Shown: piece by piece, positions 27,454 through 45,060 of the stretch
How positions within the stretch are numbered: position 1 is the first letter of the stretch
How the letters are laid out: each line of letters begins with the position of its first letter
Source of the DNA: Bacteroidales bacterium
GTDB taxonomy: Bacteria > Bacteroidota > Bacteroidia > Bacteroidales > WRLA01
Assembly (NCBI GenBank): GCA_965230045.1
Contig: OZ245940.1
Coordinates: forward strand, 8,058-72,057
Direction: 5' to 3'
DNA: 64,000 bases
Position numbers and translations under genes: made by a program
The notes under the pieces: generated by a model
What the model was told of the DNA's origin: nothing
The model's database searches: none
What the model saw: only the letters and a program-made list of their open reading frames with translations

Positions 27454-27464
27454 AATATTTTTGT

Positions 27465-29855
27465 TTATTCAAAACGTAATGCATCGGCAGGGTTGGCCTG
27501 TGCTGCTTTGTATGACTGATAACCAATTGAAAGATAAGTGATGGCAATAGATGCCAAAAGGCTGATCACATAAATGCTCCAGGGAATCGCGATACGGAAT
27601 TCAAAACTTTCCAGCCAGCGCATACTGAAATAGTAGGCGAATGGCCATGCGATCAGATTTGCCAAAACCACCAGCATGATATATTCGCGGGTATAGGTAT
27701 AAATAATCTGGAATACTGATGCGCCAAAGGTTTTGCGGATGCCAATGGAGCGGATCTGCTGTGCCAGGACAAAGCTGATGATGCCATAGATGCCCAGAAT
27801 CGCGATAATTACAGCAACCAGCATAAAACTAAGGATTATGTATTGCATGCGCTGGTCATCCTCATAATAAAGACTGAGGTAGTCTTCCAGAGATTCGGAA
27901 CTTATAATAAAAGCCGGAAACATTTCTTCGAGCAGCTGTGTTACGGATTCATTTACCTGCTTCGCTTGTCCGGGATAATGCTTTACAATAAGCTTGTCGG
28001 CAAAAAAAGGCATGTGAAGAAACGCGATGGGACGTATTTCGGAACGGAGCGAAGAAGAATGAAAATCATTTACAATTCCCACAATCCGTGCTTTAAACAT
28101 ACTGATCCCAATAATTTCGCCAATAGTTTCATCGCCGATGGCCATTCCGGCTTTTTTGAGGAAGGTTTCATTTACCAGCACTTCATGAATACTGTCATCT
28201 TCATGCTGATAATATAACCAACGGCCATGCAGGACCTTCAGGCCAAAAGCATTTTTATAGGCGGTATCGACCAGTTTCAGGTAAATTTGGAAATCATCGT
28301 TTTTTGATTCATCACCCATGTGGAAATGTGTACCCATATTTGTTGAAGAAGAAGGAGCGCCAAGAGAAATGCTGACATTGCGGATCTGAGGGTTTTGCGA
28401 GAGCTCCGCATAAAGATGGTTTTGGTCTTCTGTACTGTTTCCCGGCAATTGAAAAATGAGGGTATTTTCTTTTTCAAAACCCAGATCTTTGGAATGCACA
28501 TAGCTGATTTGCCTGCTTATTGTCAGTACATTGATTACCAAAGCAGTTGTAATAGTAAATTGCATGATGATCAATACTTTACGCAATGTAAAGCGTTTTT
28601 GTCCTCCCGAGCGCAGATTGTTTTTCAGGCAATCGACAGGAGCAAAACGACTAATCATCCAGCCGGGATAAAGGCCGGTGAGCAAACTGGCGACAATCCA
28701 AACGGCCAGCAAAATCAATAGTATCGCCGGATCATCATAAATACTTACTTCTCCCTTTGGCATAATAAGGCGATTAAAAACCGGGAGCAATATCTCCGAA
28801 ATAATAAGCCCAAAAACAATACTGATCAGCACAATTACCGAAGTCTCGCTTATAAAACCGGCGATAATGCCTTTTCTTCCGGAGCCTAAAACCCTGCGCA
28901 TGCCTGCTTCCTTTGAGCGTCGTACCAATTGCGCTGTGCTCAGATTGATAAAATTAAAACAGGCTGCAAGCAGTATCAAAAGCCCAATCCAGATCAGATT
29001 ATTCAAAACAGACCGCTTTACCGCATAATTATTGGGTATGTCCACATATTTCGATTGAAAATGCATTTGCGAAAGCGGCTGAAGCTCATAAGTCATTTCA
29101 TTTCTATGTCTGTGATAGTTTTTATTTACACTGGCCGTAATGGCTTTTGTAATCATTTCTGAATCTATATTTTTGCCCAGCTTGATAAATGTATTCATAC
29201 CGCTCATGGTAAGATCCCATCTTTTAATGGCCATACCGCCCAAACTGTCGGGCAGGGCTTCGAAGGGTAAAATCATGCTGTAAGGCATACTGGAATTCAC
29301 TTTTTGCGTAGCCACTACTCCGCTCACCATCATATTTCTTCCCCGACCCACTTCCAGCCTTTTGCCCAACGGATTTTCGTTTCCAAAATATTTTTGCGCC
29401 AGGCTATCCGTTAATACCACATTTCCAGCTTCATGAAGAGCGGTTTCAGGATTGCCTTGCACCCATTGCAGCGGGAAAAACTCCTCAAACAGGCTGTCCA
29501 CATAAAGCAGGTTCTCTTCCCGGAATGATTTTTCACCAATAAAAACATCTTCGATATAGCGGTTGTAAATCTGCATAATGGGATAATCAGGAAGATCGAG
29601 GCGCAAGGCACGTGCCATGGGAAAAGGCGTACAGGATTCATAATTTTTATTTTGTGCGTGATGTGTTATACCACAAACCCTGTAAATATTCCTATATCCA
29701 GGAACATCACGATCGTAACTCAGCTCGTATCGAACATAAAGGCTTATCAGGATGAAGGCGGCCATTCCAATAGCCATCCCGAAAATATTGATCAGGGTAT
29801 AAGTCTTTTGTCGTTTGGCTTTACGCCAGCTTATGAGAAAAAAATTTCGGAACAT
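27465..29855 (-). CDS. FtsX/MacB-type ABC transporter permease
   Basis: 796 aa paralog, 11 nt upstream of the previous one (tandem operon). Tail ...ANPADALRFE. Confidence 0.9.
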   Translation of the reverse strand: MFRNFFLISWRKAKRQKTYTLINIFGMAIGMAAFILISLYVRYELSYDRDVPGYRNIYRVCGITHHAQNKNYESCTPFPMARALRLDLPDYPIMQIYNRYIEDVFIGEKSFREENLLYVDSLFEEFFPLQWVQGNPETALHEAGNVVLTDSLAQKYFGNENPLGKRLEVGRGRNMMVSGVVATQKVNSSMPYSMILPFEALPDSLGGMAIKRWDLTMSGMNTFIKLGKNIDSEMITKAITASVNKNYHRHRNEMTYELQPLSQMHFQSKYVDIPNNYAVKRSVLNNLIWIGLLILLAACFNFINLSTAQLVRRSKEAGMRRVLGSGRKGIIAGFISETSVIVLISIVFGLIISEILLPVFNRLIMPKGEVSIYDDPAILLILLAVWIVASLLTGLYPGWMISRFAPVDCLKNNLRSGGQKRFTLRKVLIIMQFTITTALVINVLTISRQISYVHSKDLGFEKENTLIFQLPGNSTEDQNHLYAELSQNPQIRNVSISLGAPSSSTNMGTHFHMGDESKNDDFQIYLKLVDTAYKNAFGLKVLHGRWLYYQHEDDSIHEVLVNETFLKKAGMAIGDETIGEIIGISMFKARIVGIVNDFHSSSLRSEIRPIAFLHMPFFADKLIVKHYPGQAKQVNESVTQLLEEMFPAFIISSESLEDYLSLYYEDDQRMQYIILSFMLVAVIIAILGIYGIISFVLAQQIRSIGIRKTFGASVFQIIYTYTREYIMLVVLANLIAWPFAYYFSMRWLESFEFRIAIPWSIYVISLLASIAITYLSIGYQSYKAAQANPADALRFE

Positions 29856-30025
29856 GATATATATTTTGTCAGCAAAATTGAAATAATTGTGCCCACCACA
29901 CTAATGTTCTTAAAATAAAGCCATTATGTTGATAACATTTTAGAATTATTGTTTTTATTGTTCCAATTTGAAACAAAATACTGTTTCATGGCGGAACAAT
30001 TCCGTACCTTAGCAAAAAAAGCACA

Positions 30026-31390
30026 ATGGCAAAAGACGGAAATATCCTCATTATTGATGATGATGAAGGCATACTGGCAACATCGCGCGTTGTATTGCGC
30101 CATCATTTTAAAAAACTGGTTTGCCTTACCCATCCCGATTTGGTTTCAGGGCTCGATGACTTTGCTTCTTTTGATGTGGTGATGCTCGACATGAATTTCC
30201 GTCCGGGCGCTACCAGCGGCTCAGAAGGCATGGAAGCGCTCAGAAAGTTGCTGTCGATAAATCCTGGGGCACATATTGTGATGATCACGGCTTATGCCGA
30301 TATTCACCTCGCAGTGCATGCCATGAAGGAAGGAGCCGTGGATTTTATCGTAAAACCCTGGGACAATGAGCGCTTGCTGGCTACGGTTCGCTCCGTTTTC
30401 CGCCTGAGCAAATCGCGCAGAAAAGTACAGGAACTGGAGCAAAAGCAAAAAAACCTGAACCAGGCCATCAATTATCATGGTGGCAAGCTGATTGGCGATT
30501 CGCCTTGCATGAAGGATTTGAAAAATATGATTGCGCGTGTAGGGCAAACCGATGCCAATATTTTAGTGCTTGGTGAAAACGGAAGTGGGAAAGAGCTTGT
30601 GGCGCGCGAAATCCACCGGCTTTCCCACCGCTCGGAAAAGGCTTTTGTGGCCGTAGATCTGGGCGCCATTCCGGAAAGCCTGTTTGAATCCGAACTTTTT
30701 GGCTATGTAAAAGGCGCTTTCACCGATGCCGCCGAAGATAAAGCCGGACGCTTTGAAATGGCGGATGGGGGCACGCTTTTTCTCGATGAAATCGGCAACC
30801 TGGATTTGAAGCTTCAGTCCAAATTACTGAGTGTTTTGCAAAACAGGGAAGTGTTCCGGCTGGGCAGCAACAAAGCCATTCCCCTGGATGTGCGCCTGCT
30901 TTGTGCCACCAATATGCCTTTGCGCACAATGGTGGGCGATGGCCGTTTCCGCGAAGATTTGCTCTACCGTATCAATACTTTGGAGATTAATGTTCCGCCA
31001 CTGCGCGACCGCATCGAAGATTTACCTCAACTGCTGGATTATTTCATAGCGCAATATGCCACACGATATGCCAAAAATGTGAAAGGTGTTCAGGCTGCTG
31101 CTTTGTCGCGCTTAAAGCGATATCGCTGGCCGGGCAATATCCGCGAACTGCGCCACCTGTCCGAAAGGGCCGTAATCCTGTCCGAAGGAACTATGCTGCA
31201 ATCCACCGATTTTGCCCTGCACGAGGATGTGGTCCATGATGCCCCTCCTGTGCTCAATCTGGAAAAGCTGGAAAAAACCGCCATCGCGGCAGCCATTGAA
31301 AAACATCAGGGCAATTTGAGCAATGCAGCAAAAGAACTGGGTTTGGGACGCACGACCCTCTACCGAAAAATGGAAAAATATGGCCTCTAA
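30026..31390 (+). CDS. Sigma-54-dependent response regulator (NtrC family)
   Basis: Receiver domain (ILIIDDDEGIL...DVVMLDMNF), AAA+ Walker A GENGSGKE, the GAFTGA-type loop KGAFTDA, and a C-terminal Fis-type HTH AAKELGLGRTTLYRKMEKYGL. Confidence 0.9.
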   Translation: MAKDGNILIIDDDEGILATSRVVLRHHFKKLVCLTHPDLVSGLDDFASFDVVMLDMNFRPGATSGSEGMEALRKLLSINPGAHIVMITAYADIHLAVHAMKEGAVDFIVKPWDNERLLATVRSVFRLSKSRRKVQELEQKQKNLNQAINYHGGKLIGDSPCMKDLKNMIARVGQTDANILVLGENGSGKELVAREIHRLSHRSEKAFVAVDLGAIPESLFESELFGYVKGAFTDAAEDKAGRFEMADGGTLFLDEIGNLDLKLQSKLLSVLQNREVFRLGSNKAIPLDVRLLCATNMPLRTMVGDGRFREDLLYRINTLEINVPPLRDRIEDLPQLLDYFIAQYATRYAKNVKGVQAAALSRLKRYRWPGNIRELRHLSERAVILSEGTMLQSTDFALHEDVVHDAPPVLNLEKLEKTAIAAAIEKHQGNLSNAAKELGLGRTTLYRKMEKYGL

Positions 31391-32708
31391 TTCCAACACC
31401 ATACGCATTTATTTGCGCATCAGCCTTATTGCTGTGATGTTGCTGGGCTTTTCGTTCAGCCTGGCCCAGGACAAATGGTATGTGACCAGTGGTGCATTTC
31501 TGCTGGCGGCCATAGTTTTGAGTGTTGAGTTGGCCACTTATACGCGCAAACATCTGCGCGAACTTCAAAACCTGCTCGAGGCCATCAGGCAAAATGCCTA
31601 TAACGACCAATATGTGCCCGAAAGCAATGATCCGCTATACCGTTCGGCTTTTGCCGGAATTTTGGAGGAAATGAAAAACGCACGCATTGAGAAGCAAAGC
31701 CATTACGAATACCTGCAACAGGTGATCAGTCATGCGCGTGTTGCGATGATCTGTTTTGATGAAAAGCAGCAGATCGACCTTTTTAATGCGGAGGCAGAAC
31801 AATTGCTGGGCATGAGCAAGCCCGATAACCTACGCCAGCTGAACCGTGCCGGAAGCGGCCTGGAAGAGCTGATGTTGCGCATTCGCAAAAGCGGGAAAGA
31901 GCATTATCGGCTAAACCGAGGCGGAATGCCCGTGCCGCTGGTGCTCTATGCCGGACGTTTCCGGATTTTGCAAAAGGAATACTGCTTAGTAAGCCTGCAC
32001 GATATTAAATCAGAAATGGAAGCCCAGGAAACCGAATCATGGAAAAAGCTGATCCGTGTGCTGACCCACGAAATCATGAATTCGGTTACGCCCGTAAAAT
32101 CCCTGACCTCCGCCCTGCGGCAAAATATTGAAAAGCATCCGGATATTGTAAAAAATTCGGAAGAAGGGACGGAAATAGCCGAAGGCTTACAGATTATCGA
32201 AGAACGGAGCAATGGGCTTTTGCGTTTTGTGGACCTCTACCGCAGCATCACCCGCCTGCCCGAACCCGAATGGACGGAGTTTAAAGTGCACGACATACTG
32301 AAAAATATTGTGGTGCTGATGAAACCCGGCTTAGAGGCAAGTAATATGGGACTGGAAATCAGTTATGATGCAAAAATCCCCATGCTTGTTGCCGATTACG
32401 ATATGATTCAACAGGTGCTGATCAACCTTTTGCAAAATGCCAGCGAAGCCCTGACCGGACAGGAAAACGCGCAAATAAAACTCCATGCCGGCAGCAGGAA
32501 AGGCCGTGCCTTTATTTCGGTAAGCGACAATGGCCCCGGTGTGCGCAGCGAAGATGAAGAAATGATTTTTATTCCTTTCTTCACCACACGGAAAAAAGGA
32601 AACGGCATTGGCCTGAGCCTCTCCCGCCAGATTATGCAGCTCCACAAAGGAAGCCTTTCTTTTGAAAATTTACCTCAAGCTGGGGCGCACTTTGTGTTGC
32701 AGTTTTAA
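31380..32708 (+). CDS. Sensor histidine kinase
   Basis: The start MASNSNT overlaps the regulator stop by 11 nt. It has two TM segments, the H-box LTHEIMNSVTPV, the N-box NLLQNASEA, and G-boxes DNGPGV / GNGIGLSL. Confidence 0.85.
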   Translation: MASNSNTIRIYLRISLIAVMLLGFSFSLAQDKWYVTSGAFLLAAIVLSVELATYTRKHLRELQNLLEAIRQNAYNDQYVPESNDPLYRSAFAGILEEMKNARIEKQSHYEYLQQVISHARVAMICFDEKQQIDLFNAEAEQLLGMSKPDNLRQLNRAGSGLEELMLRIRKSGKEHYRLNRGGMPVPLVLYAGRFRILQKEYCLVSLHDIKSEMEAQETESWKKLIRVLTHEIMNSVTPVKSLTSALRQNIEKHPDIVKNSEEGTEIAEGLQIIEERSNGLLRFVDLYRSITRLPEPEWTEFKVHDILKNIVVLMKPGLEASNMGLEISYDAKIPMLVADYDMIQQVLINLLQNASEALTGQENAQIKLHAGSRKGRAFISVSDNGPGVRSEDEEMIFIPFFTTRKKGNGIGLSLSRQIMQLHKGSLSFENLPQAGAHFVLQF

Positions 32709-32877: not shown

Positions 32878-34729
32878 TATATAGTGCCAGCCAGAAAACT
32901 ATAGGTTTTTAAAATTCACCCAAAAAACAGCGAGTAAAATATGCTCCGAAAGTAGCATCATGCCTAAAAAAATTAAATTTCATAGTAAATATATAGAAAT
33001 ATGATCCGGATTTGCCGGCTTATACAGCCCTGTAGAAACAACAAGGCATAATTCACCCCTGTAAAACACTTAATATACTGTAATTCAATACTTTAAAATT
33101 ATGCCGCATTAAAGCGCCCCTCACCTATGTGTTGATCAGCTACTTGCAGCCGGATCAGCTCAACTCCAATCCTGCGCAAGTTGTAAGCTGATACAGCCAG
33201 GCCAACATAACGTTTAAAATGTCCATACCCTTTGTCGGGACATCTGTCCAGCCCTCTGTGTTCCAATTCGTTTATATTTGATTCTATTGCGCTGTGCCTA
33301 TTGCGTGCCTTTATAAACCAAGGCTGGTGCTCTTGTTGGTATTCCTGCTTGTTGCATTTCCCCTTTTTGGGGAGTACCAAACGTTGGGTGTTTTGTGAGA
33401 GCAGTTCTTTATTTTCTTTTTTCCAATATCCTTTATCAAAGCTCCAACTTGCAATGTCTTTGTAGCGCAAGGATATTCTCTGGGCCAGCTGTGGAACGCA
33501 TTCTGAGTCTGACTGATTTTCTATGATCTGGTAATCGACAATGAGGTTATATTGGTCAGTGGTTATTGCCGCTTTTTTCCCAAGTTCTACATTAGGCCGC
33601 ATTTTGCCTTTTTTTATCCACTCGGTGTAGGTTTCAAAAATGGAAAACATTTTTTCTTCATGGGGGATTTCCTCCCCTTTTATCACCCTTCTTTCCAGCA
33701 GGTCTATATGTTTTTGCAACAGGGCCATATAGTGGGACAGTTCGGTCAAAACGGGATTGCCATCAATAGTGCTGCAGCCGCATTCTTTCCCGAGCTTGGC
33801 GTGAAGTGCTTTCGCTTTTGTGAGGTAGCTTTTAGCGGTTTGCCGAACCCTATCGGCTTTTCTTTTTCCTCCTGAAGCACTTGCCCGCCCCAGTGCACGC
33901 ATCTTGTTTTTGAGGTCTTTGCGCCAATTTTTATTTTTGCGCCACCCTGCCGGCGGTTGGCCGGGATAAAGCCTGGCAACTATATCGAGGCATTTGCGGG
34001 CACAGTCCCACAGCAAGTTATAGTCAGTTGGAAAATGGACATTGCTTTCTACTACAAAACTATCGGTTTTTAAGCACAATGCTTCCTCCCCTTTTTTTTT
34101 AAACACGTAGTGGCCAAAATCAGCGATAATACTGTTTAGCTCCCTGACCGATTCATCGTCCAATAATCCTACATTATCTATAATAGACTGATAACCAAAC
34201 TTATAACTACTCATTCCGTAATCGTTTTCAACACCCATGATTTGGCGCACAAGCCGGTCGTAATTGGCCAGGTAGTGCAGGTCATCGTAGCTTATGTTTT
34301 GGCAAAGGCGTACTTGGGAAAGTACAAAGACATGCCATAGATCCATTCCAGGACGCCCTGTTTTATTATTCTCGGATAGGATTTTGTCCTCAAGGATACT
34401 GAAAACTTTTTCGTTCCACTCTGGGCTTACAAAAATCTCTTTTAATGCTGCACATAGGCCGGGAAGGGCGCCACTGCGCTTTTTTGTCGGTATTACTACA
34501 TCTTGAATCAAAGTACTGCCAATTTTGATCTGCTGTTCGAATCTTTTTCTCATATCTTTCCGTGTTTTGATGTCTGAGGCGCAATAAACGAATCTCAAAC
34601 AGTTAAAGCACCGAATATCAGCAAAATAACTGTTCTACACAAGAAAATACCGCGAAAGATTCAACAAAGTTATTAACAGTAAAATACTGATAAACAAAAT
34701 GATATGAGTATTCTGGCAGGGACTATATA
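32878..34729 (-). mobile_element. IS element (ISNCY-like DDE transposase) with 19-bp imperfect terminal inverted repeats
   Basis: TATATAGTGCCAGCCAGAA (32878-32896) versus the reverse complement of TTCTGGCAGGGACTATATA (34711-34729) gives 17/19 matches. A single transposase ORF lies inside. Confidence 0.7.
33099..34553 (-). CDS. DDE transposase (ISNCY-family-like)
   Basis: The N-terminus MRKRFEQQIKIGS...GRPGMDLWHVFVLSQVRL and the C-terminus ...HSAIESNINELEHRGLDRCPDKGYGHFKRYVGLAVSAYNLRRIG are typical of IS4/IS5-superfamily, ISNCY-annotated transposases, as recalled from memory. Confidence 0.65.
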   Translation of the reverse strand: MRKRFEQQIKIGSTLIQDVVIPTKKRSGALPGLCAALKEIFVSPEWNEKVFSILEDKILSENNKTGRPGMDLWHVFVLSQVRLCQNISYDDLHYLANYDRLVRQIMGVENDYGMSSYKFGYQSIIDNVGLLDDESVRELNSIIADFGHYVFKKKGEEALCLKTDSFVVESNVHFPTDYNLLWDCARKCLDIVARLYPGQPPAGWRKNKNWRKDLKNKMRALGRASASGGKRKADRVRQTAKSYLTKAKALHAKLGKECGCSTIDGNPVLTELSHYMALLQKHIDLLERRVIKGEEIPHEEKMFSIFETYTEWIKKGKMRPNVELGKKAAITTDQYNLIVDYQIIENQSDSECVPQLAQRISLRYKDIASWSFDKGYWKKENKELLSQNTQRLVLPKKGKCNKQEYQQEHQPWFIKARNRHSAIESNINELEHRGLDRCPDKGYGHFKRYVGLAVSAYNLRRIGVELIRLQVADQHIGEGRFNAA

Positions 34730-34869
34730 ACATCTTTTCACCTGGATTTATTCTATATTTGTACCACAAAAGTGAATTTGCAGGTAAAATAGCATGTTAA
34801 TCCTTTTCGCAAATTTTTTAATAAGTTATTGATTTTAGAATTAGGAAATATATAATTAGTTGTTATACA

Positions 34870-35217
34870 ATGGATTATACAAATCAAAAAAGCAGAAGCC
34901 TGTTCTTTAACGAGAAAGGTAAAGTGCATCAGGCATTAGTTGATACAATTATATATATCGAATGTACTGGCAGTATATCCTCTATACACCTCCTTGATCA
35001 AAACAAATGCATTCACTGTTGTGAACCACTAAAAGATATCGAGGAACGTTTAGATGGGCTTAATTTTTATAGGATCAATAGAAATACTTTGCTCAATCTG
35101 AGATATTTCTCAAAATTTGTATCCGGGGAAAAAAGACTTATTCAAATCCTTAATGGTGAAGAATTAAAAGTTTCCAGAAGGCGCTGGCAAGAAATCCGAA
35201 ATATGCTAAAACAATAA
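34870..35217 (+). CDS. Stand-alone LytTR DNA-binding domain regulator
   Basis: 115 aa. ...IIYIECTGSISSIHLLDQNKCIHCCEPLKDIEERLDGLNFYRINRNTLLNLRYF... matches the LytTR pattern. There is no receiver domain. Confidence 0.8.
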   Translation: MDYTNQKSRSLFFNEKGKVHQALVDTIIYIECTGSISSIHLLDQNKCIHCCEPLKDIEERLDGLNFYRINRNTLLNLRYFSKFVSGEKRLIQILNGEELKVSRRRWQEIRNMLKQ

Positions 35218-35318
35218 ACCGCTCATTTATAAAAACGAACCGTTCATCCCTTAAAACATACCGCTTATCAAATAAAACGACCATTTGAATAAAATCTTAA
35301 TATGAATACATATCTTTG
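35217..35318 (+). promoter_or_regulatory. Four phased direct repeats (candidate LytTR sites) plus a Bacteroidetes-type -7 box, cassette 1
   Basis: AACCGCTCAT (35217), AACCGTTCAT (35238), TACCGCTTAT (35259) and GACCATTTGA (35279) are spaced 21/21/20 bp. TATCTTTG (TAnnTTTG) lies at 35311-35318, and a fifth copy AACCATTCAT at 35345. Confidence 0.5.
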
Positions 35319-35719
35319 TTTTTGTATAATTATGCTAAGATATGAACCATTCATTTAGATATAAAGTCCGACAGCTTGTTTTAAAATGGAGTTATGCTTT
35401 CAGGGACAATAGAATGCGTTCCGGTCATTGTGACATTAAATTTATAACGGATCATTGCTTGTCTCCGGACTACCACAATAGACCTATAAGAACAATCTTG
35501 CTCAAAAATGACAGCGGAAATGGATTTATTAAATTTGTCTATTTAATTTCTAAGCATATTTTTATGCTGGGAAAGAATAAGTTCGACTGACTATACCGTT
35601 TCCGGATACATTAGAACCCGACCGGAACGGCATAATGTAGAATATACGTATTAAATGGGCTCTGCAATAACAAGTTACAGTATTAGAAAATTTATGAATT
35701 GGATTAAAAATCTTATAAT

Positions 35720-35929
35720 ATGAAAAAGAAAAAATTAAGTTTAAATAAAGTTAAAGTTGCAAAGCTGCAAGATACCAAGATGAATAATGTTATTGGAGGG
35801 AATTTGGCTGAACCAACCCATACATGTCGTGAAACACAAGTTACGTGTATGCTAACTTGCTTAGATCCTGACTCAATAGTGGCTTGTGAATTATCAAGTC
35901 CTTGTACAACTCTGTTTACTACCAATTAA
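35720..35929 (+). CDS. lanA: Lanthipeptide-type precursor peptide 1 (GG leader)
   Basis: Leader MKKKKLSLNKVKVAKLQDTKMNNVIGG. The 42-aa core has 5 Cys and 12 Ser/Thr. It sits upstream of a LanC gene. Confidence 0.8.
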   Translation: MKKKKLSLNKVKVAKLQDTKMNNVIGGNLAEPTHTCRETQVTCMLTCLDPDSIVACELSSPCTTLFTTN

Positions 35930-35959
35930 TTATTATTTTGAATATTTTCATGATTTTAT

Positions 35960-35984
35960 GGGTGTCCATAAAGGACACCCTTTT
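35960..35984 (+). terminator. Hairpin plus T4 immediately after precursor gene 1 (candidate leaky terminator/attenuator)
   Basis: GGGTGTCC-ataaa-GGACACCC followed by TTTT. Confidence 0.5.
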
Positions 35985-36000
35985 ACAATATCAGCATTAT

Positions 36001-37344
36001 ATGAAAAGATTATATTTATTATTAGTACTACTTTCTACGTATCAATTACTTTTCTCACAAAACAATACCGTTGTGAAAGGAACCGTAATTGAAGAAAATA
36101 CCGGGCAACCATTGCCCAATGTAGCCATCCAGATTTGGCCGGGCAGCAAATTCGGAAGCATAAGCAACAAAGAAGGAAGGTTTAAAATCAACACAGACAA
36201 AGATAGCATAACATTGAAGTTCTCTCACATCTCGTCCGTGCCGAAACTATTAAAAGTCAATGCTAAAGCCGTGTCAGACTCCAACCTCCTTGTTACATTG
36301 AGTCCGTTTTCATACACCCTTGATGCCGTGGAAATCAGCGAAGAGAGATATGAAACGATCTATAAAAAACCCAATCAATCGGTTATTGATTACGAAATTT
36401 ACGATCACCGCATCTACTTCCTGCTGAAAGATTACTCCAATAGGAAATACCAGCTGATTTCGGTTGATGAAAACCTTAGGGACACAATCTTTAGCACTCC
36501 TCCCGGCAAGCCCAGGGGAATTATTATTGATTTTTATGGCAACCTGGATATTGTTTCAAAATCGAATTCTGTTTATCAGATTATTATTGAAAACGGCCAG
36601 ATTAACTATCTGGAACCCTTCAATTATTCAAAACTCGAAAAAGTAAATGAACTATATGATTTCAAAATTGACAGCAATTATTATTTTTCTGAATATAAGA
36701 CAAAAATCAATGATAAAATCTGCTACTACACAATAAACAGGAGCACCAAAAATATTTTTCACACCATTATAGACGATAAGAAAGTTGATTATATTTTTCA
36801 AGAACTACGGTTTTTATTGCCAAAGAAATTTTTTAACTCTGGTGTTCCTCCTGGAGATGAGAGAAGAGCCTTTATTAATAATATGTATGACAATCACGAA
36901 ATTACCTTTGATCTAAATTATCATTACAACAACATATGGAATGTATTCTTCAATATTGAAAATGAAATATATATCATTGATAACATCAAAAACAAGCTAT
37001 TAAAGTTTGATAAAAGAGGCAAGCTCGTCTCAGAGCTCAACATAACACACAGCAATGATGATGAAAAAGCTTTCAGTTTGCTGGAAATGGAAGAAGGGCG
37101 GATATGGAAGGACAAGGCATTGATAGACAACTGCAATAACGGAAAAGCATATTTCTTATGGAAACAGGGCGCCAGAACCGAGCTTTATTCATTAGATCTC
37201 AAGAGCGGCGAGATCTCATTTATTGAAACACTGCCCCATGTTTTCCCCATTAAAATAAAGGTGTATAACAACACCATTTATTATTTATACCAGAAAATTG
37301 GCAACAGCAGGAATTATGGGCTTTATAGAATGTATATAAATTAA
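36001..37344 (+). CDS. Secreted protein X1: CarboxypepD_reg-like N-domain plus an uncharacterised beta-rich (propeller-like) domain
   Basis: Signal peptide MKRLYLLLVLLSTYQLLFSQ. VKGTVIEENTGQPLPNVAIQIWPGSKFGSISNKEGRFKI resembles a carboxypeptidase-regulatory-like fold. Later repeats such as EIYIIDNIKNKLLKFDKRGKLV resemble NHL/6-bladed propeller strands. Confidence 0.6.
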   Translation: MKRLYLLLVLLSTYQLLFSQNNTVVKGTVIEENTGQPLPNVAIQIWPGSKFGSISNKEGRFKINTDKDSITLKFSHISSVPKLLKVNAKAVSDSNLLVTLSPFSYTLDAVEISEERYETIYKKPNQSVIDYEIYDHRIYFLLKDYSNRKYQLISVDENLRDTIFSTPPGKPRGIIIDFYGNLDIVSKSNSVYQIIIENGQINYLEPFNYSKLEKVNELYDFKIDSNYYFSEYKTKINDKICYYTINRSTKNIFHTIIDDKKVDYIFQELRFLLPKKFFNSGVPPGDERRAFINNMYDNHEITFDLNYHYNNIWNVFFNIENEIYIIDNIKNKLLKFDKRGKLVSELNITHSNDDEKAFSLLEMEEGRIWKDKALIDNCNNGKAYFLWKQGARTELYSLDLKSGEISFIETLPHVFPIKIKVYNNTIYYLYQKIGNSRNYGLYRMYIN

Positions 37345-37354
37345 GAATAGATTG

Positions 37355-38527
37355 ATGAATGTGGATTTGCTATTAAAAAAAGTGTACGAATCATTGTCGC
37401 CTGTAAATGAGGTAAGTGTTCATGGATTTTATTCTGATACTTCGGGAATCTCCCTTTTCCTTTTTTATTATTCCTTAATGCTAAATGATGAAAAGTGTTA
37501 CAATAAAGCGGTAATGCTTCTTGAAAAAACTTTGATGTCTTATTACCAAACCAGAATTGCGCCTTCTGACATTGCCAGATTGGGTTGGCTTTTACTAAAT
37601 CTTGATAGTAATGATTTTTTAGAGACTGATATTAATGAATTGATTGAGAAGAGTGTGAATAAAGTTTTATTCGAAAAAGTTTTGGATTATCTAAAAAATG
37701 ACAATTACGACTTCTTGCATGCTGCACTTGGTATCATTCAGTACTTTTTGAGCAAAAATGATATAGAAAGTCGGTTCTATGTTTCAGAATTTGTTGATGA
37801 ATTTGCAGAAAAGGCAGAAAGGGTAAAAGATAATGAGCTGAAATGGCTGTCAACATTAGACATCAGAACAAAAACAAAAGGCTATAATATCAGCATGTCG
37901 CACGGTCTGGCAAGCATTATCACTATGCTGAGCAAGATATACAAACAGGGAATTAACCAGGATAAAACGAAGTACTTACTTGAAGGAGCCGTGAATTATC
38001 TGCTGCAACAAAAATTGCCCAATGGCAAGTATATTTCTGTTTTCCCAAACTTTGCCATAGAAAGCATGAAAAATTTGGCCCCGAGCCGTCTTGCCTGGTG
38101 TTATGGCGATCTTGGCATTTCTGTAGCAATATGGCATGCATCACAGGCGCTTGGGCGAAAAGATTGGGAAGAAAAAGCCATTAACATTCTGCTCCACTCT
38201 GCCCAGCGAAGGGATTTGAAAGAAAACAGCGTAATAGATGCAGGGCTTTGCCATGGTACAGCTGGCATTGCACATATTTATAACCGTATGTATGGCTATA
38301 CGGGTGTTGAAGAACTGAAAGAAGCTTCTGAATACTGGTTCGGCCAAACCCTTAAAATGGCACGCTTTGAGGATGGTTTGGCGGGTTACAAGGCCTGGCA
38401 TGGGCTTGATAAAGGATGGAAAAATGAGACAGGACTGCTGGAAGGAATTGCAGGCATTGGTCTTGCCATGATTTCTGCTGTTTCGGATATAGAGCCTGCA
38501 TGGGACGAATGTTTGTTGTTAAGTTAG
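37355..38527 (+). CDS. lanC: LanC-like lanthipeptide cyclase 1
   Basis: The motifs SMSHGLASI (catalytic His), LAWCYGDLG (WCxG, Zn Cys) and LCHGTAGI (CHG, Zn Cys/His) are at LanC-typical spacing. About 390 aa. Confidence 0.85.
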   Translation: MNVDLLLKKVYESLSPVNEVSVHGFYSDTSGISLFLFYYSLMLNDEKCYNKAVMLLEKTLMSYYQTRIAPSDIARLGWLLLNLDSNDFLETDINELIEKSVNKVLFEKVLDYLKNDNYDFLHAALGIIQYFLSKNDIESRFYVSEFVDEFAEKAERVKDNELKWLSTLDIRTKTKGYNISMSHGLASIITMLSKIYKQGINQDKTKYLLEGAVNYLLQQKLPNGKYISVFPNFAIESMKNLAPSRLAWCYGDLGISVAIWHASQALGRKDWEEKAINILLHSAQRRDLKENSVIDAGLCHGTAGIAHIYNRMYGYTGVEELKEASEYWFGQTLKMARFEDGLAGYKAWHGLDKGWKNETGLLEGIAGIGLAMISAVSDIEPAWDECLLLS

Positions 38528-38578
38528 ATTGAGATGCTGGAGGCACTGAAAAGAACGCCGAAATATGCTAAAACAATA

Positions 38579-38680
38579 AACCGCTCATTTATAAAAATGA
38601 ACCGTTCATCCCTTAAAACATACCGTTTATCAAATAAAACGACCATTTGAATAAAATCTTAATATGAATACATACCTTTG
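38579..38680 (+). promoter_or_regulatory. Phased direct repeats plus -7 box, cassette 2
   Basis: The same four repeats occur at identical spacing, with TACCTTTG at 38673-38680. The block is preceded by a copy of the last about 44 nt of lytTR. Confidence 0.5.
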
Positions 38681-39081
38681 TTTTCGTATTGTTAAGCAAA
38701 GTTATGAACCATTCATTTAGATATAAAGTCCGACAGCTTGTTTTAAAATGGAGTTATGCTTTCAGGGACAATAGAATGCGTTCCGGTCATTGTGACATTA
38801 AATTTATAACGGTTCATTGCTTGTCTCCGGACTACCACAATAGACCTATAAAAACAATCTTGCTCAAAAAAGACAGCGGAAATGGATTTAATAAATTCGT
38901 CTATCTAATTTCTAAGCATATTTTTATGCTGGGAAAGAATAAGTTCGACAGGCTATGCCGTTTCCGGATACATTAGAACCCGACAGGAACGGCATAATGT
39001 AGAATATACGTATTAAATGGGCTCTGCAATAACAAGTTACAGTATTAGAAAATTTAAGAATTGGATTAAATATCTTATAAT

Positions 39082-39282
39082 ATGAAAAAGAAAAAAATAA
39101 AATTGGTTCTTACTAAAAGGACTATATCAAATTTGCAAGATTTTGAAATGAAACGGGTTCTTGGAGGAGAAGAGCCTACGAAAAATGTCACCTGCGCTAC
39201 ATGCATAGAAACTAAATATCCCGCATGTGGATGGTCTGGCTGTTGGGGGCCACGCACTTGTGCAATTACAACTACAGATTAG
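39082..39282 (+). CDS. lanA: Lanthipeptide-type precursor peptide 2 (GG leader, divergent)
   Basis: Leader MKKKKIKLVLTKRTISNLQDFEMKRVLGG. The 37-aa core EEPTKNVTCATCIETKYPACGWSGCWGPRTCAITTTD has 5 Cys and 9 Ser/Thr. Confidence 0.8.
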   Translation: MKKKKIKLVLTKRTISNLQDFEMKRVLGGEEPTKNVTCATCIETKYPACGWSGCWGPRTCAITTTD

Positions 39283-39296
39283 TTATCCTATTTTTG

Positions 39297-39340
39297 ACCT
39301 CCAATTGTGAGTATAATAGTATCACCATTGGAGGTTATTT
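39297..39340 (+). terminator. Hairpin after precursor gene 2
   Basis: ACCTCCAAT...ATTGGAGGT (39297-39335) followed by TATTT. Confidence 0.4.
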
Positions 39341-39393
39341 CTAATGGTGTGATATTGTTTGTGTTTTGATCAATTATATATATTCTAATAGTT

Positions 39394-40758
39394 TTGAAAA
39401 AAAAGATATTTAAATTTTTGTTTACTGCTTTATTAATATCAACAGTACAAGTTGGAGTATTTGGGCAATCTTCTATAATAGTTACAGGTGTTGTTAGAAA
39501 TAATCCTGATGTAAATATCTCAGTTTTAGAAACAAGTTATGGAACTATCACTAATGAAACTGGGCACTACTCTTTGGAGGTTTTTGCAGAAGCTGAGAAA
39601 ACGCAATTACTCTTCTCAAAAATTGGATATAGGGACACAATTGTACAGCTACGAAAAGAAGATATTAATATAGACACAATTTTATTAAATATTACACTAA
39701 ATAAACATTCATACCTCCTTCCGGAATTTAAGGTTAAGTCCAGCCCATATTTTTTCAGTACTTCAAACTCTATTATTCTCGATATTGAATTCATTGATAA
39801 TTTGCTGTTTGTATTAAATCGTAAGCAAAATAGATCCGAGCTTATTTTATTAGACGAAAATGGTAGTGTGCTATCTGTACAGCAGGTTAATAATAAGTAC
39901 AATGAAATTTTTAGAGATTGTTTCGGTAACTATGAATTAATCGGGAATGATTCGTGTTTGCAGTTGCATTATAATTCTTTGGATACGTCATTCAATGCAG
40001 TCGATAAATTTACAACTGCAGCTTTTAATAAAAAAATTAAACCCTTCGTTTTAAACCTTGGTTGTATGTTTCTAACTAAAGATTATTTTGAAAAAAACAG
40101 CGCAATTGTGAGCAAACATCACAACCAGAAAGTTAATTACTATTATATTGACACTTGTAAGCCCGTAAAAAATAAAAAATTACTGGTTAGCTTCTTTGAT
40201 TCTGTGGCTTATAATATTGCTGCCAGTTATTATTCGGATATAATTTCATTGTATTATGCGACAACACCGTCTAGCCAGAATCTTATAGAGTCTGGTGTCT
40301 GGAATGGAAATATTCTAAAGCTTATTAACAATAACCATAGATTGTTTAATTTAATTTCTTGGTACTTGTCAGTAGAAGCCAAGCCTGTTGAAATTGATGT
40401 GTTTGTTGATAACAACGAAATAATTTTTTATAATCATCAGAATTTCACTATCCTCAGATATAATAAATCTTTCGTTCTTATGGATAAAGGGACTGTATTT
40501 ATGCAGAATGGAGTTAAAATAGATAATATTTTGCAAGATGATATAACCGGAACTATATATGCTTCACAACTTAAGAATGGAATTAATTATATTGGTAAAT
40601 TTGATATAAAAAGCGGAAAAGTACGTAAGCAAGTTAAGTCACATACAACTCCATTTCCTAAAATATTCAGAATCCATAATAATGCTGTGTACTGCGTCTA
40701 CTATGATAGTATTAAAAGAAGAAGTACTGTTATCAGAAAGTCACTATATGAAAGATAA
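39394..40758 (+). CDS. Secreted protein X2 (divergent paralog of X1/X3)
   Basis: Same length class and architecture. It has a signal peptide and VTGVVRNNPDVNISVLETSYGTITNETGHYSL (CarboxypepD_reg-like). The C-terminus ...IHNNAVYCVYYDS...VIRKSLYE parallels ...VYNNTIYYLYQKI...LYRMYIN. The start codon is TTG or a nearby alternative. Confidence 0.55.
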   Translation: MKKKIFKFLFTALLISTVQVGVFGQSSIIVTGVVRNNPDVNISVLETSYGTITNETGHYSLEVFAEAEKTQLLFSKIGYRDTIVQLRKEDINIDTILLNITLNKHSYLLPEFKVKSSPYFFSTSNSIILDIEFIDNLLFVLNRKQNRSELILLDENGSVLSVQQVNNKYNEIFRDCFGNYELIGNDSCLQLHYNSLDTSFNAVDKFTTAAFNKKIKPFVLNLGCMFLTKDYFEKNSAIVSKHHNQKVNYYYIDTCKPVKNKKLLVSFFDSVAYNIAASYYSDIISLYYATTPSSQNLIESGVWNGNILKLINNNHRLFNLISWYLSVEAKPVEIDVFVDNNEIIFYNHQNFTILRYNKSFVLMDKGTVFMQNGVKIDNILQDDITGTIYASQLKNGINYIGKFDIKSGKVRKQVKSHTTPFPKIFRIHNNAVYCVYYDSIKRRSTVIRKSLYER

Positions 40759-40765
40759 TAAAATT

Positions 40766-41496
40766 ATGAAAATTCTTTTGGATAAGAAGTTAGATGAAAT
40801 TTCTAGGGTCTTATTGAACTCAAATTTAACAATAACACAATCAGAAAATTTGCTTGGTGACAAATCAGGTATTGCTCTTTTCTTGTTCCAATATAGCCAA
40901 TTTAAAAATGAAGCAAAATATTACGACTTTGCTTATGAAATACTTGAAAGCATTGCCAATGTATATCGCGAAAATCAAATTTTACCAACTTCAATATCAA
41001 AATTTGAATGGTTACTATTGTATCTGGAGAAACAAGGAATTATTGATTTAGATATTGAAAATATTCATGAAGATATCGACTATCATTTATACGAAGTCGC
41101 AAATGCTTGTCTTCAAAAGTATGGTTATGATTTTTTGCACGGAGCTTTAGGTATTGTGCTTTATTTTTTGAAAAAAAATGATGATCTAACCAGTAATTTC
41201 ATATTTAATCTCATTAATACTCTAGAGCTAGTTTCTGATAAGACTCAAAGTAATATTGTTAAATGGCTTTCCGTTATTGATTATAAAACAAGTGAAACGG
41301 CATACAATATCAGCATGTCGCACGGTCTGGCAAGCATTATCGCTATGCTGAGCAAGATATACAAACAGGGAATTAATCAGGATAAAACGAAGTACTTACT
41401 TGAAGGAGCCGTGAATTATCTGCTGCAACAAAAATTGCCCAATGGCAAGTATATTTCTGTTTTCCCAAACTTTGCCATAGAAAGCATGAAAAATTT
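40766..41496 (+). pseudogene. lanC: lanC2, 5' fragment (interrupted by IS66)
   Basis: The N-terminal about 180 codons are divergent. From about 41300 (YNISMSHGLASII...) the sequence is nearly nucleotide-identical to lanC1. The frame is cut after ...ESMKNL by the IS end GTAAGCC. Confidence 0.85.
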
Positions 41497-41565
41497 GTAA
41501 GCCTTCAGCAAAAGGCATATTGCACAAGCTTTTAAAGCTTCCGTTCTTTGCTGCAAAAAAGCAAT

Positions 41566-41853
41566 ATGCAAAAAGAACAAAGAAGAGCAGAGATGAAAAC
41601 ACTGGTGGATCAATGGCATACCAGTGGCCAAAGCAAAAGATCCTTTGCCGAATCACACAAAATCTGCTATCACACTTTCCTTTATTGGTATCATAAATTT
41701 GAACAGGAAGAAAGCTTGCCTGATGGCCATGGGTTCATTGAGCTTTCCGGGACTCCAGCTGCAGGGATTATCATCCGTTATCCCAATGGTATCGAGCTCA
41801 ACCTTCCGGGCAATGTGCCCTTGTCCTATCTCAAATCGCTCACCGGCCAATAA
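41566..41853 (+). CDS. tnpA: IS66 accessory protein TnpA
   Basis: Small HTH-like protein in the first position of the IS66 operon. Its stop overlaps the tnpB start (TAATG). Confidence 0.7.
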   Translation: MQKEQRRAEMKTLVDQWHTSGQSKRSFAESHKICYHTFLYWYHKFEQEESLPDGHGFIELSGTPAAGIIIRYPNGIELNLPGNVPLSYLKSLTGQ

Positions 41854-42218
41854 TGTTCAGCTTAACAGCCAGCCGCTATTACCTGTACCGCCAGCCCACC
41901 GATATGCGCAAGAGCTTTGATGGGCTGTATGGCATTGTGCGCAACAAACTGGACAAAAACCCAATGAGCGGTGATGTTTTCCTGTTCATCAACAAAAAGC
42001 GCGACCGCATAAAACTGCTGCGCTGGGAAAGCGGAGGTTTTGTGCTGTTCTACAAAAGGCTCGAAAAAGGCACTTTTCACCTGCCGGACACATCTGCTGC
42101 GCACGCCTCCCACCAGCTGATCGACTACCCTGAACTTGTAATGATAATCAATGGTATTTCCATGAAAAATGCAAGGAAATACCCACGTTTTTTCCCACAT
42201 GAAAATGTTGGTAAATAG
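41853..42218 (+). CDS. tnpB: IS66 Orf2 (TnpB)
   Basis: ...YLYRQPTDMRKSFDGLYGIV...GDVFLFINKKRDRIKLLRWESGGFVLFYKRLEKGTF is the hallmark IS66 TnpB pattern. Confidence 0.85.
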   Translation: MFSLTASRYYLYRQPTDMRKSFDGLYGIVRNKLDKNPMSGDVFLFINKKRDRIKLLRWESGGFVLFYKRLEKGTFHLPDTSAAHASHQLIDYPELVMIINGISMKNARKYPRFFPHENVGK

Positions 42219-42265
42219 CGCTTAAAATATAGTCAGCCAAGAGGTTACTTCCGTATCTTTGCCTC

Positions 42266-43720
42266 ATGGCAAGTCAGGAAAATATAACTATATCAAAAGC
42301 GGAATATGATGCAATGCAACAGAAAATATTCCTGCTTCAGCATGAACTTGTCCAGTTGAGGCGTGCGATCTATGGAGCCAAAAGCGAACGGCATATCGCG
42401 GCAGACCCCAACCAGGGCGTGCTTTTTGACGTGCCTGCACAGGAGAAAGAGCCGGAAAAGGAGCAGATCAGCTATACGCGCAATAAAAAGCAGTCCAAAA
42501 AACAGCCCGTGCGCTTAGAACTGCCCGCCCACCTGCCGCGCCATGAAATCATCATCGAACCCCAAAACCTGCCCAAAGGCGCCCATAGGGTCAACGTAAA
42601 AATCACCGAAGTACTTGATTATGTGCCCGGGACTTTTCGTGTGATCCGTTATATACGTCCTTATTATGCCGTAGCAGGCCAGGGCGAAAGCACCCAAATG
42701 ATTTGTGCAGAACTACCTTCGCGCGCCTTGTTCAAAAGCAATGCCTCAGAAGGCCTGCTCTCTTATGTGACTGTCAGCAAATTTGTTGACCACCTGCCAT
42801 TCTACCGCCTTGTCAAGATGTTCAAGCGCATGGGGATCGAAATAGCCGAATCAACAATAAACGGCTGGTTTAGCGGGGTTTGCAGATTGCTTGAGCCGCT
42901 TTACGATGCCCTGAAAAAAGAAATCATGAGGACCGATTACCTGATGGCAGACGAAACGCCTATAAAGGTATTGACCAAAGACAAGCCCGGGGCATCGCAC
43001 AAAGGGTATCACTGGGTTTATTACGACCCGCTTAAAAAACTGGCCCTGTTCGATTACCGGAAAGGCCGCGGGCGGGAAGGCCCGGATGAGATGCTGGAAA
43101 ACTATAGTGGATATTTGCAAACCGATGGCTACACCGCTTACGACAACCTAAAAAACAAAGCCGAAATCACCCAATTGGCCTGCATGGCGCATGCACGCAG
43201 GTATTTTGAGAAAGCCAAGGACAATGATGCTGCACGCAGTGAATATGCGCTGGGGCAGATAAGAAAACTGTATGCCATTGAACGTCAGGCAAGTGAGCAA
43301 GAGCTACAGCCGGAGGAGGTCAAAGCATTGCGGCAAAAGGAATCAATGCCCATATTGAACGAAATGGAAAGCTGGCTTAAGGAAGAAGTTTATAAAGTAG
43401 CGCCCAAAAGCGCAATCGGCAAAGCCATAGCTTACAGCCTGAAATTATGGGGGCGCCTGATCCGTTATATTGAAGACGGAAGGCTGCGCATTGACAACAA
43501 CCTGGTTGAAAACAGCATCAGGCCGGTAGCCATAGGGCGCAAGAATTACCTGTTTGCGGGTTCGCACAATGCAGCCCAGCACGCGGCTATGATCTACTCC
43601 TTTTTTGCCAGCTGCAAAATCCAAAATGTCGAACCCTTCGAGTGGCTCAAGCAAACATTAGAAAAAATCCAGGAACACCCAGCCAACAAGCTCCATCAAC
43701 TCCTGCCCGGACAGATTTAA
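42266..43720 (+). CDS. tnpC: IS66-family DDE transposase (TnpC)
   Basis: N-terminal coiled-coil/zipper, ...YLMADETPIKVL...HKGYHWVY...GYLQTDGYTAYD...CMAHARRYF...RIDNNLVENSIRPVAIGRKNYLFAGS. Confidence 0.9.
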   Translation: MASQENITISKAEYDAMQQKIFLLQHELVQLRRAIYGAKSERHIAADPNQGVLFDVPAQEKEPEKEQISYTRNKKQSKKQPVRLELPAHLPRHEIIIEPQNLPKGAHRVNVKITEVLDYVPGTFRVIRYIRPYYAVAGQGESTQMICAELPSRALFKSNASEGLLSYVTVSKFVDHLPFYRLVKMFKRMGIEIAESTINGWFSGVCRLLEPLYDALKKEIMRTDYLMADETPIKVLTKDKPGASHKGYHWVYYDPLKKLALFDYRKGRGREGPDEMLENYSGYLQTDGYTAYDNLKNKAEITQLACMAHARRYFEKAKDNDAARSEYALGQIRKLYAIERQASEQELQPEEVKALRQKESMPILNEMESWLKEEVYKVAPKSAIGKAIAYSLKLWGRLIRYIEDGRLRIDNNLVENSIRPVAIGRKNYLFAGSHNAAQHAAMIYSFFASCKIQNVEPFEWLKQTLEKIQEHPANKLHQLLPGQI

Positions 43721-43771
43721 AACATTATCCGGTTATATGCAAGATGCTGTTCGCCGTAGGCTTACAAAAAT

Positions 43772-44224: not shown

Positions 44225-44275
44225 ACTGAGATACTGAAGGCGCTGGCAGGAACTCCGAAATATGCTAAACCAATA

Positions 44276-45003: not shown

Positions 45004-45019
45004 TGAAATATAGTAATTA

Positions 45020-45044: not shown

Positions 45045-45060
45045 ACAATATCAATATTAG

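Follow-up and report, generated by a model that had tools for sequence, protein, structure and literature searches.

A 64-kb stretch of contig OZ245940.1 from a Bacteroidales bacterium (assembly GCA_965230045.1; hereafter the window) carries lytTR, a gene for a LytTR-domain transcription factor without a receiver domain, whose stop codon runs directly into phased direct repeats and a promoter, P1. These elements recur in front of three lanthipeptide cassettes. Control of P1 by LytTR through the repeats is well supported by comparison of homologous loci, in which repeat sequence and spacing persist beside lytTR while the surrounding DNA diverges. The joint reading, which we regard as likely, is that LytTR acts on the P1 repeats, that gene and promoter form a portable unit, and that the leader of the lanthipeptide precursor gene lanA is composite, with two transcription starts. 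The system is of a known kind, the LytTR regulator of bacteriocin genes. Its new features are a Bacteroidales host, the lack of a receiver or membrane partner, an operator fused to the stop codon of the regulator, three phased sites, and multiplication of the promoter.

Phased repeats and promoter P1

The regulator gene, repeats, and promoter elements are located in the window as follows.

34870 to 35217, + strand: lytTR, receiver-less LytTR-domain transcription factor of 115 aa (Pfam match; homologues all approximately 115 aa)
35217 to 35268, + strand: repeats R1-R3 (AACCGCTCAT, AACCGTTCAT, and TACCGCTTAT, starting at 35217, 35238, and 35259), predicted LytTR binding sites, 21 bp start to start, conserved in homologous loci
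35279 to 35288, + strand: R4 (GACCATTTGA), a weak repeat containing the P1 -33 TTTG (35284-35287), conserved in the near clade only
35311 to 35318, + strand: P1 -7 box TATCTTTG (TAnnTTTG), with a predicted start at approximately 35323-35327
35345 to 35354, + strand: 'fifth copy' of the repeat, AACCATTCAT, approximately 20-30 nt past the predicted P1 start and of doubtful significance

The first repeat begins on the last base of the lytTR TAA stop codon, and the starts of R1-R4 are spaced by 21/21/20 bp, as a preliminary description of this DNA had reported. The arrangement is far beyond chance: the pattern ACCRYTYR-N13-ACCRYTYR occurs six times in the window, all within the three repeat blocks, compared to 0.02 occurrences expected from shuffles. 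The strong repeats R1-R3 follow the consensus [A/T]ACCG[C/T]T[C/T]AT (9/10 bp), the array reads ACCGCTCAT-12-ACCGTTCAT-12-ACCGCTTAT, and 15 bp separate the end of R3 from the -33 TTTG. The TAnnTTTG box previously placed at 35311 is also present. Together with the -33 TTTG and a 23-nt spacer, it matches the Bacteroidetes sigma-A consensus (-7 TAnnTTTG, -33 TTTG) as quoted in PMC7366714; a sigma-70 promoter scan is uninformative for a Bacteroidetes genome. The spacers between repeats hold an A-tract at a fixed offset in the consensus across loci. We infer that LytTR molecules would occupy the repeats on one face of the DNA, two helical turns apart and with phased A-tracts between them, and that the bound regulator would activate sigma-A RNA polymerase at P1. 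The promoter fits an activator-dependent type because its -33/-7 spacer is long.

Two further elements were rejected. The fifth repeat, listed earlier at 35345, is present; it is found only in type A leaders (the type of this window) of close relatives and is absent from type B and distant-clade promoters. The inverted repeat ATGAAC-C-GTTCAT formed by R2 in block copies 2 and 3 is likewise not conserved beyond near relatives or in the distant clade.

Conservation across homologous loci

Protein-guided and pattern-guided searches yielded a comparison set of approximately 20 loci, all from Bacteroidales or Lentimicrobium metagenome-assembled genomes (MAGs) or metagenome contigs. Loci L001-L011 plus metagenome loci L012-L024 make up the repeat footprint comparison, with LytTR proteins 42-95% identical; L012-L024 stem from anaerobic digester and fermentation metagenomes. 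The shared layout consists of the lytTR stop codon, three phased repeats, and then a -7 box. In every homologous locus fetched, down to 42% protein identity, R1 begins 0-6 nt past the stop codon and three [A/T]ACCGCTCAT-like 10-mers lie exactly 21 bp apart. The coding 3' ends, parts of the spacers, and all downstream DNA diverge between loci while the sequence of R1-R3 and the 21-bp spacing persist. The repeats, as these alignments present them, are a phylogenetic footprint tied to lytTR. The array of four or five repeats initially proposed is thereby reduced to R1-R3 as the part conserved in all these loci, with R4 and the fifth copy confined to near relatives; in the distant clade the R4 position reads TTTTTCTTGA(C), which is not repeat-like.

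The -7 box stands 51-52 nt after the start of R3 in three unrelated downstream contexts, namely type A, type B, and the distant clade. It reads TATCTTTG or TACCTTTG in type A, TATTTTTG in type B (L002-L006), and TACTTTTA or TACCTTTA in the distant clade, where a TTGAC-type -33 element precedes it. This fixed geometry between R3 and the -7 box is the strongest argument, from sequence, that the repeats govern P1 and that P1 is a real promoter.

The genes placed behind P1 differ among loci. In the distant clade the cargo consists of GG-leader precursors followed by radical-SAM/SPASM maturases, a TonB-dependent-receptor-like outer membrane protein, and a C39 peptidase ABC exporter (PCAT), while in near relatives it is a secreted Cys-rich peptide of 62 aa, lipoproteins, or a CarboxypepD_reg-like gene that remains from a lanthipeptide cassette. 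The genome of L005/L025 combines one lytTR with at least two type B and at least four type A promoter copies across approximately 25 kb. A LytTR of 37% identity at L038 precedes several ELESRFEM-leader precursors, upstream of which a 21-bp-spaced pair, CACGCTTAT/AACGCATAT, was assigned by eye. The relatives with this cartridge are gut and digester bacteria. We propose that lytTR and P1 act as a cartridge that would drive different peptide cargoes across the Bacteroidales.

A side observation concerns metagenome contig L022, where positions 1950-2050 hold a perfect tandem array of at least five copies of the 21-bp unit GGACCGCTCATTTACTGAAAT with the ACCGCTCAT core, set in GC-rich flanks with no LytTR nearby.

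The regulator and its setting

Pfam PF04397 (LytTR) matches residues 18-113 of the lytTR product (E=4.3e-14, 53 bits, cut-off 22.6) over profile positions 2-97 of 98, i.e. as a full-length domain. The Pfam scan found no second domain in the 115-aa protein and, specifically, no N-terminal receiver (Response_reg). Close homologues are all approximately 115 aa and all begin MDY(S/T)NQK; a HMMER scan of 1.8 billion representatives returned 38 clusters at E<1e-10, of which nearly every one is a stand-alone protein 110-125 aa long. Four Cys residues of the protein (C32, C47, C50, and C51) are conserved. A phmmer search of PDB sequences gave no match, and an AlphaFold2 model from a 3-sequence alignment had a mean predicted local distance difference test (pLDDT) of 38.5, too low for a fold search. 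No membrane partner or inhibitor gene was found beside lytTR, and no open reading frame (ORF) follows it in an operon because the repeats begin at its stop codon. The earlier picture of a stand-alone regulator lacking both a receiver and an adjacent membrane inhibitor was thus confirmed.

The gene upstream of lytTR in the window is an ISNCY transposase, and in other loci the upstream neighbours are unrelated (FtsX, histidine kinase, HipA-like, and others). One candidate element of the gene's own promoter was read from the sequence.

34754 to 34761, + strand: candidate -7 box of the lytTR promoter, TATATTTG, with an equivalent box in L004

A pattern search of the window detected no phased LytTR-type repeats in 34600-34870, nor elsewhere outside the three blocks. 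Positive autoregulation of lytTR is not evident, its own putative promoter being without repeats. A search by eye for a sigma-54 promoter covered the DNA upstream of lytTR, the GGGAA motif, and the 40-nt element (the latter two described below), and no GG-N10-GC match was seen in any of them. In the distant clade (L008, L009, L011, L016) approximately 220 nt upstream of lytTR are conserved although the upstream genes differ, which implies that the portable unit includes the gene's own control region. The same distant-clade region also shows a loosely periodic, degenerate CGCTC motif, a doubtful feature that may be a weak autoregulatory site but need not be one.

In all near-clade genomes lytTR is flanked by two MacB/FtsX-type permease genes and by the pair of a sigma-54 response regulator and a histidine kinase. 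This segment corresponds to 25087-32708 in the window and to 1629-9307 in L001/L002, where it is inverted relative to the window and L004. The sigma-54 two-component system is unlinked to lytTR in the distant clade.

Comparison with known systems

HdrR, a receiver-less LytTR regulator, binds two 9-bp direct repeats as determined by electrophoretic mobility shift assay and reporters (Zou et al., PMC6193735). The sites listed there include ACCACTTAT-12-ACCGCTTAT (BrsR), ACCGCTTGT-12-ACCGCTTAT (S. carnosus), and many ACCACTTAC pairs, usually approximately 10 bp upstream of the -35 element (PMC6193735). The window repeats match these published sites, which bears out the claim that they share the register of LytTR binding sites. 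The LytTR regulatory systems (LRS) HdrRM and BrsRM of Streptococcus mutans therefore resemble the present system in having a LytTR-only regulator without a receiver, bacteriocin gene targets, and 9-bp direct repeats of near-identical sequence (ACCGCTTAT / ACCACTTAT) with 12 bp between them, inside the 11-13 bp range of the LRS site type, just upstream of the -35/-33 element. Unlike the LRS, lytTR has no co-transcribed membrane inhibitor gene and no repeats upstream of itself, the sites number three or four rather than two, they lie 3' of the regulator gene and abut its stop codon, and the promoter is a -33/-7 sigma-A promoter of a Bacteroidales host that has been multiplied before several cassettes.

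AgrA, ComE, BlpR, and PlnC-PlnD of the Firmicutes share with the window a LytTR domain, paired direct repeats in a 21-bp register, control of peptide, bacteriocin, or quorum-sensing operons, and several regulated promoters per locus. These regulators have an N-terminal receiver and a cognate histidine kinase, which senses a peptide pheromone and phosphorylates the receiver, whereas here there is neither a receiver nor a dedicated kinase. No paper linking LytTR regulators to the control of Bacteroidales clusters for peptides, or for peptides made on the ribosome and modified after translation (RiPPs), was found in the literature searched.

Duplicated blocks and the composite leader

The repeats and P1 belong to a block present three times in the window, whose lanA-proximal part contains further conserved elements.

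35177 to 35719, + strand: block copy 1 (543 nt), running from the final 40 nt of lytTR through the repeats and P1 and along the composite leader to the lanA1 ATG, with a module junction at approximately 35417
38539 to 39081, + strand: block copy 2, comprising a lytTR 3' remnant, R1-R4 (38579/38600/38621/38641), -7 box (38673), motif (38931), and hairpin (38954-38996)
44236 to 44778, + strand: block copy 3, comprising a lytTR 3' remnant, R1-R4 (44276/44297/44318/44338), -7 box (44370), motif (44628), and hairpin (44651-44693)
35534 to 35564, + strand: candidate proximal promoter P2, consisting of TTTG (35534-35537), 19 nt, and TATTTTTA (35557-35564)
35569 to 35587, + strand: conserved motif GGGAAAGAATAAGTTCGAC (the GGGAA motif), common to LytTR-less lanthipeptide loci L026-L033
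35592 to 35634, + strand: hairpin TATACCGTTTCCGG ... CCGGAACGGCATA in the lanA 5' region, with covariation

Both recurrences noted previously, at 38579 and 44276, were found, with the correction that the repeated unit begins approximately 40 nt inside lytTR and not after its stop codon. Block copy 1 is 95% identical to positions 38541-39081 within copy 2 and 93% identical to copy 3, and every copy, in the window and in L025, opens with the last ~40 nt of lytTR, which are functionless there. Over the lanA core, the accessory gene, and the opening two thirds of lanC, cassette 2 shares only 30-50% identity with cassettes 1 and 3, but over the final 650 nt of lanC and the 543-nt block the figure is 92-99%. 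This identity mosaic is a sign that gene conversion, or the shuffling of modules, has acted where the cassettes join. The region encoding the LanA leader peptide is also 92-99% identical between cassettes (window 35177-47600). The history, read from these alignments, began with a tandem duplication, one breakpoint of which lay 40 nt inside lytTR; gene conversion then kept the copies alike. Such a duplication would have copied P1 before all three cassettes (lanA, CarboxypepD_reg-like gene, and lanC). Identity among the leader copies is not evidence of function, because the 3' 650 nt of lanC and the useless lytTR remnant are equally conserved.

Block positions 1-240 (to approximately 35417) occur alone before other genes in L001, L003, L004, and L025, and the remainder is lanA-specific. 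Since the first part is found alone elsewhere and the proximal part is shared with LytTR-less loci, the leader reads as a fusion of two modules, approximately 100 nt from P1 and approximately 300 nt of native lanA upstream sequence. The LytTR-less loci in question, L026-L033 (LanC 52-60% identical), are lanthipeptide loci without LytTR and without repeats. They share with the window a T-rich TATTTTT-type box, the motif TGG(G)GAA(A/G)AATAAGTTCGA(C/T) 3-6 nt further on (the distance to the T-rich box being seen in L026, L029, L031, and L033), and the hairpin another ~5-8 nt on, approximately 25 nt downstream of the promoter-like box. Window positions 35556-35590 are the only blastn homology of the leader to these loci. 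Loci L034-L037 (LanC 49-53% identity) contain no LytTR, no repeats, and no motif or hairpin, and the proximal element is thus confined to a sub-clade.

The conserved 12-bp hairpin of the preliminary description is real, although its stem is mismatched in all window copies (A-C in copy 1 and a different non-compensated mismatch in copies 2 and 3) and it belongs to the proximal block shared with LytTR-less loci. The stem occurs as six different sequences at the same offset, and covariance analysis across homologous loci (MAFFT alignment), which had been suggested for the leader, revealed double compensatory changes in 9/12 pairs. Paired cells made up 83.8% of the total compared to 31-57% with slid partners, and 0/500 shuffles reached the covariation score. 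The hairpin is assigned to RNA of the + strand because G-U pairs occur.

The idea of a conserved leader of approximately 400 nt serving as an RNA-level control element was only partly upheld. The motif and hairpin are conserved, but the identity of the copies is historical, the leader is composite, and no Rfam match was obtained (Rfam 15, none relevant at E<=1 in 34000-50000; none meaningful when seven related loci were scanned at the gathering cut-off and L008 by E-value). Folding stability is not out of the ordinary (z=-1.47 over 35325-35719, z=+0.89 over 35569-35719), and by these scores a large riboswitch-like fold was rejected. Also rejected, as a coding gene or membrane inhibitor, was an ORF in the leader (35342-35590, 82 aa), the product of which is basic and non-hydrophobic, with counterparts in L001/L003 showing many non-synonymous changes and a different C-terminus.

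Within the leader, the motif and hairpin are the only parts under selection. They probably mark a second, LytTR-independent start approximately 150 nt before the ATG, or a processing site. From P2, which is close to the promoter consensus, transcription would begin at the GGGAA motif (35569). Because the hairpin block is shared with LytTR-less loci and lies near a promoter-like box, a second, proximal start is likely, and the 400-nt leader would be present only on P1 transcripts. We infer that lanA probably has two starts, one distal, LytTR-dependent, and giving a ~400-nt leader, the other proximal and giving a ~150-nt leader that opens with the motif and hairpin. As a 5' stabiliser or processing determinant, the hairpin would probably affect how stable the mRNA is or how it is processed.

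Alternative explanations

It is possible, though we doubt it, that lanA is transcribed essentially from P2 with a ~150-nt leader, P1 being auxiliary or vestigial and the long leader rarely or never made. The P2 block (T-rich box, GGGAA motif, and hairpin) is the only part of the leader common to loci without LytTR and repeats (L026-L033), its TTTG-N19-TA spacing is near optimal, and Bacteroides 5' untranslated regions (UTRs) are usually short, with a median of 32 nt and only 13.5% exceeding 100 nt (PMC7366714). However, P1 keeps intact repeats and a perfect TAnnTTTG in all three window copies and in four L025 copies, the downstream gene in L001, L003, and the first L025 cassette has no recognisable promoter besides P1, and a terminator scan (requiring at least 5 T) found no terminator between P1 and lanA. 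The imperfect -7 box of P2 also counts against this explanation.

An improbable alternative is that LytTR binds the repeats as a repressor or roadblock, e.g. blocking read-through from lytTR or occluding the -33 element via R4. R4 does overlap the -33 TTTG, the repeats follow from the lytTR stop codon without an intervening terminator, and LytTR repressors exist, PlnD binding the same repeats as the activator PlnC (PMC2714321). Yet the distant clade has no conserved R4 and shows a good TTGAC-type -33 element clear of any repeat; sites directly upstream of -33/-35 are the activator arrangement in LRS, AgrA, and Pln systems; and the 23-nt -33/-7 spacer suggests a weak promoter needing help.

It is very improbable that the repeats are non-functional sites, having either travelled with the duplicated cassettes or being targets of some unrelated factor. 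The three window arrays do derive from a single duplicated block, useless lytTR remnant included, and R2 in copies 2 and 3 can be read as an inverted repeat. But the repeats and their 21-bp spacing are kept beside lytTR at 42-49% protein identity, where the DNA around them cannot be aligned; the distant clade does not share the palindrome; and the repeat sequence matches known LytTR sites.

Several points weigh against LytTR-dependent activation at P1 combined with two lanA starts. The LytTR fold assignment comes from Pfam only. Only close relatives conserve R4 and the fifth copy, and R1 is missing from some promoter copies of relatives (L003 12056, L004 15719 and 17409, L005 13125). Most of the evidence on type A leaders is from MAGs ~98% identical to the window. 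The -7 box of P2 ends in A where the consensus has G, one L025 copy of it is degenerate, and P2 may not be a promoter. The window cluster cannot make a lanthipeptide alone because LanB is truncated and LanT lost, and the LytTR regulon in this window may be vestigial.

Conserved leader elements in other loci

In type B and distant-clade loci (L002 10480-10520, with equivalent positions in L003-L011, L013, and L016), the stretch from the LytTR-dependent promoter to the first ATG downstream contains a nearly invariant 40-nt element, TAGTAAGTGATAAGGGTGA[C/A]GCCACTATAAATGCAGCCC, which is missing from the window leader. It is far better conserved than its flanks or the LytTR protein (42-49% identity). 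No Rfam match was found, and no covariation, because the sequence does not vary; a pseudoknot (AGUG/CACU plus GGGU/GCCC) is possible. Type B leaders (L002-L006; e.g. L004 10455-10466) additionally contain a perfect 10-bp palindrome, ATGACGTCAT, just downstream of the -7 box.

A broader proposal, which we consider unlikely, is a horizontally portable cartridge for any RiPP or secreted-peptide cassette, with sensory input supplied in cis by conserved 5'-UTR RNA elements. Input at the RNA level is proposed because the LytTR protein has neither a receiver nor a membrane partner. The 40-nt element (type B and distant clade) and the GGGAAAGAATAAGTTCGAC motif with its hairpin (lanthipeptide leaders) could be such inputs.

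Lanthipeptide cassettes and cluster decay

The genes downstream of the three blocks form iterated cassettes followed by the decayed end of the cluster.

35720 to 35929, + strand: lanA1, class I lanthipeptide precursor with GG leader (NCBIfam NF038153 lant_leader_L1a, E=1e-8)
35960 to 35980, + strand: GC-rich hairpin and TTTT after lanA1, likely an attenuator or terminator, with a counterpart at 45020-45040
36003 to 38527, + strand: remainder of cassette 1, i.e. a CarboxypepD_reg-like secreted protein (probable ATG 36003; to 37344) and LanC (37352-38527)
39082 to 44224, + strand: cassette 2, with lanA2 (39082-39282), CarboxypepD_reg-like gene (39394-40758), and lanC split by an IS66 element (~41500-43766)
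44779 to 47584, + strand: cassette 3, with lanA3 (44779-45003), CarboxypepD_reg-like gene (45061-46401), and LanC (46409-47584)
47591 to 49355, + strand: decayed cluster end, with LanB reduced to an N-terminal fragment of 299 aa, then a 387-nt element (48459-48845) and the C-terminal part of HlyD (48858-49355)

The precursors encoded by lanA1-lanA3 all have the NF038153 leader, a GG cleavage motif, and a Cys/Ser/Thr-rich core. Attenuator hairpins are usual after lantibiotic structural genes; the hairpin and TTTT after lanA1 were not scored by the terminator scan, given its requirement for at least 5 T. The window thus holds three lanA and three lanC genes, one of the latter disrupted by an insertion sequence: the IS66 element in cassette 2 (TnpB 41853-42218, transposase 42266-43720) separates lanC fragments at 40682-41500 and 43772-44224. 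LanT is absent from the window.

The CarboxypepD_reg-like proteins, one per cassette, are secreted, 446-480 aa in length, and weakly similar to BamP at the N-terminus. The gene diverges in step with the precursor and is present in L026-L030 and not in L031-L034. The protein may be a cassette-specific immunity, export, or processing partner.

In the sister locus L025, from a Bacteroidales MAG, the class I lanthipeptide cluster is complete; its lanA-accessory-lanC cassette occurs in at least five iterations and its LanB is split. Over the LanB and HlyD regions, L025 has ~98% DNA identity to the window. A 5.3-kb segment intact in L025 encodes full LanB, a LanB elimination protein (LanB-C), a C39-ABC exporter (LanT/PCAT), and HlyD. 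In the window, the 387-nt element, flanked by terminal inverted repeats (GCGCGTGTCCTCACGCG ...), has taken the place of the greater part of LanB, of the elimination protein and PCAT exporter, and of the N-terminus of HlyD; the HlyD remnant consists of the last 165 aa.

Bacteroidota class I lanthipeptide clusters (pinensin-type, with split LanB and GG-leader LanA; NF038153) resemble the window in their lant_leader_L1a LanA and LanC, and resemble L025 in their LanB glutamylation and elimination proteins, PCAT LanT, and HlyD. Unlike these clusters, the precursor-accessory-LanC unit is iterated here, each copy with a copied regulator-dependent promoter, and the window copy has lost LanB, LanT, and part of HlyD. 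A 2023 survey detected no LanB in 1,136 Bacteroidales genomes of isolates (PMC10352776).

Implications

How RiPP and bacteriocin clusters are regulated in Bacteroidota is essentially uncharted. The present comparison provides a testable regulator-operator-promoter set conserved over lanthipeptide and radical-SAM RiPP clusters in Bacteroidales and Lentimicrobium MAGs. Such a set could help switch on silent clusters, or serve as a compact inducible part in Bacteroides engineering, and the intact sister locus L025 is a better experimental subject than the decayed cluster of the window. Two conserved 5'-leader elements were also exposed and, if they do act as RNA inputs, both would be undescribed cis-regulatory RNAs. 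Finally, the findings extend LRS-type receiver-less LytTR regulators to a Gram-negative phylum, where they occur without a membrane inhibitor, raising the question of how they are controlled.

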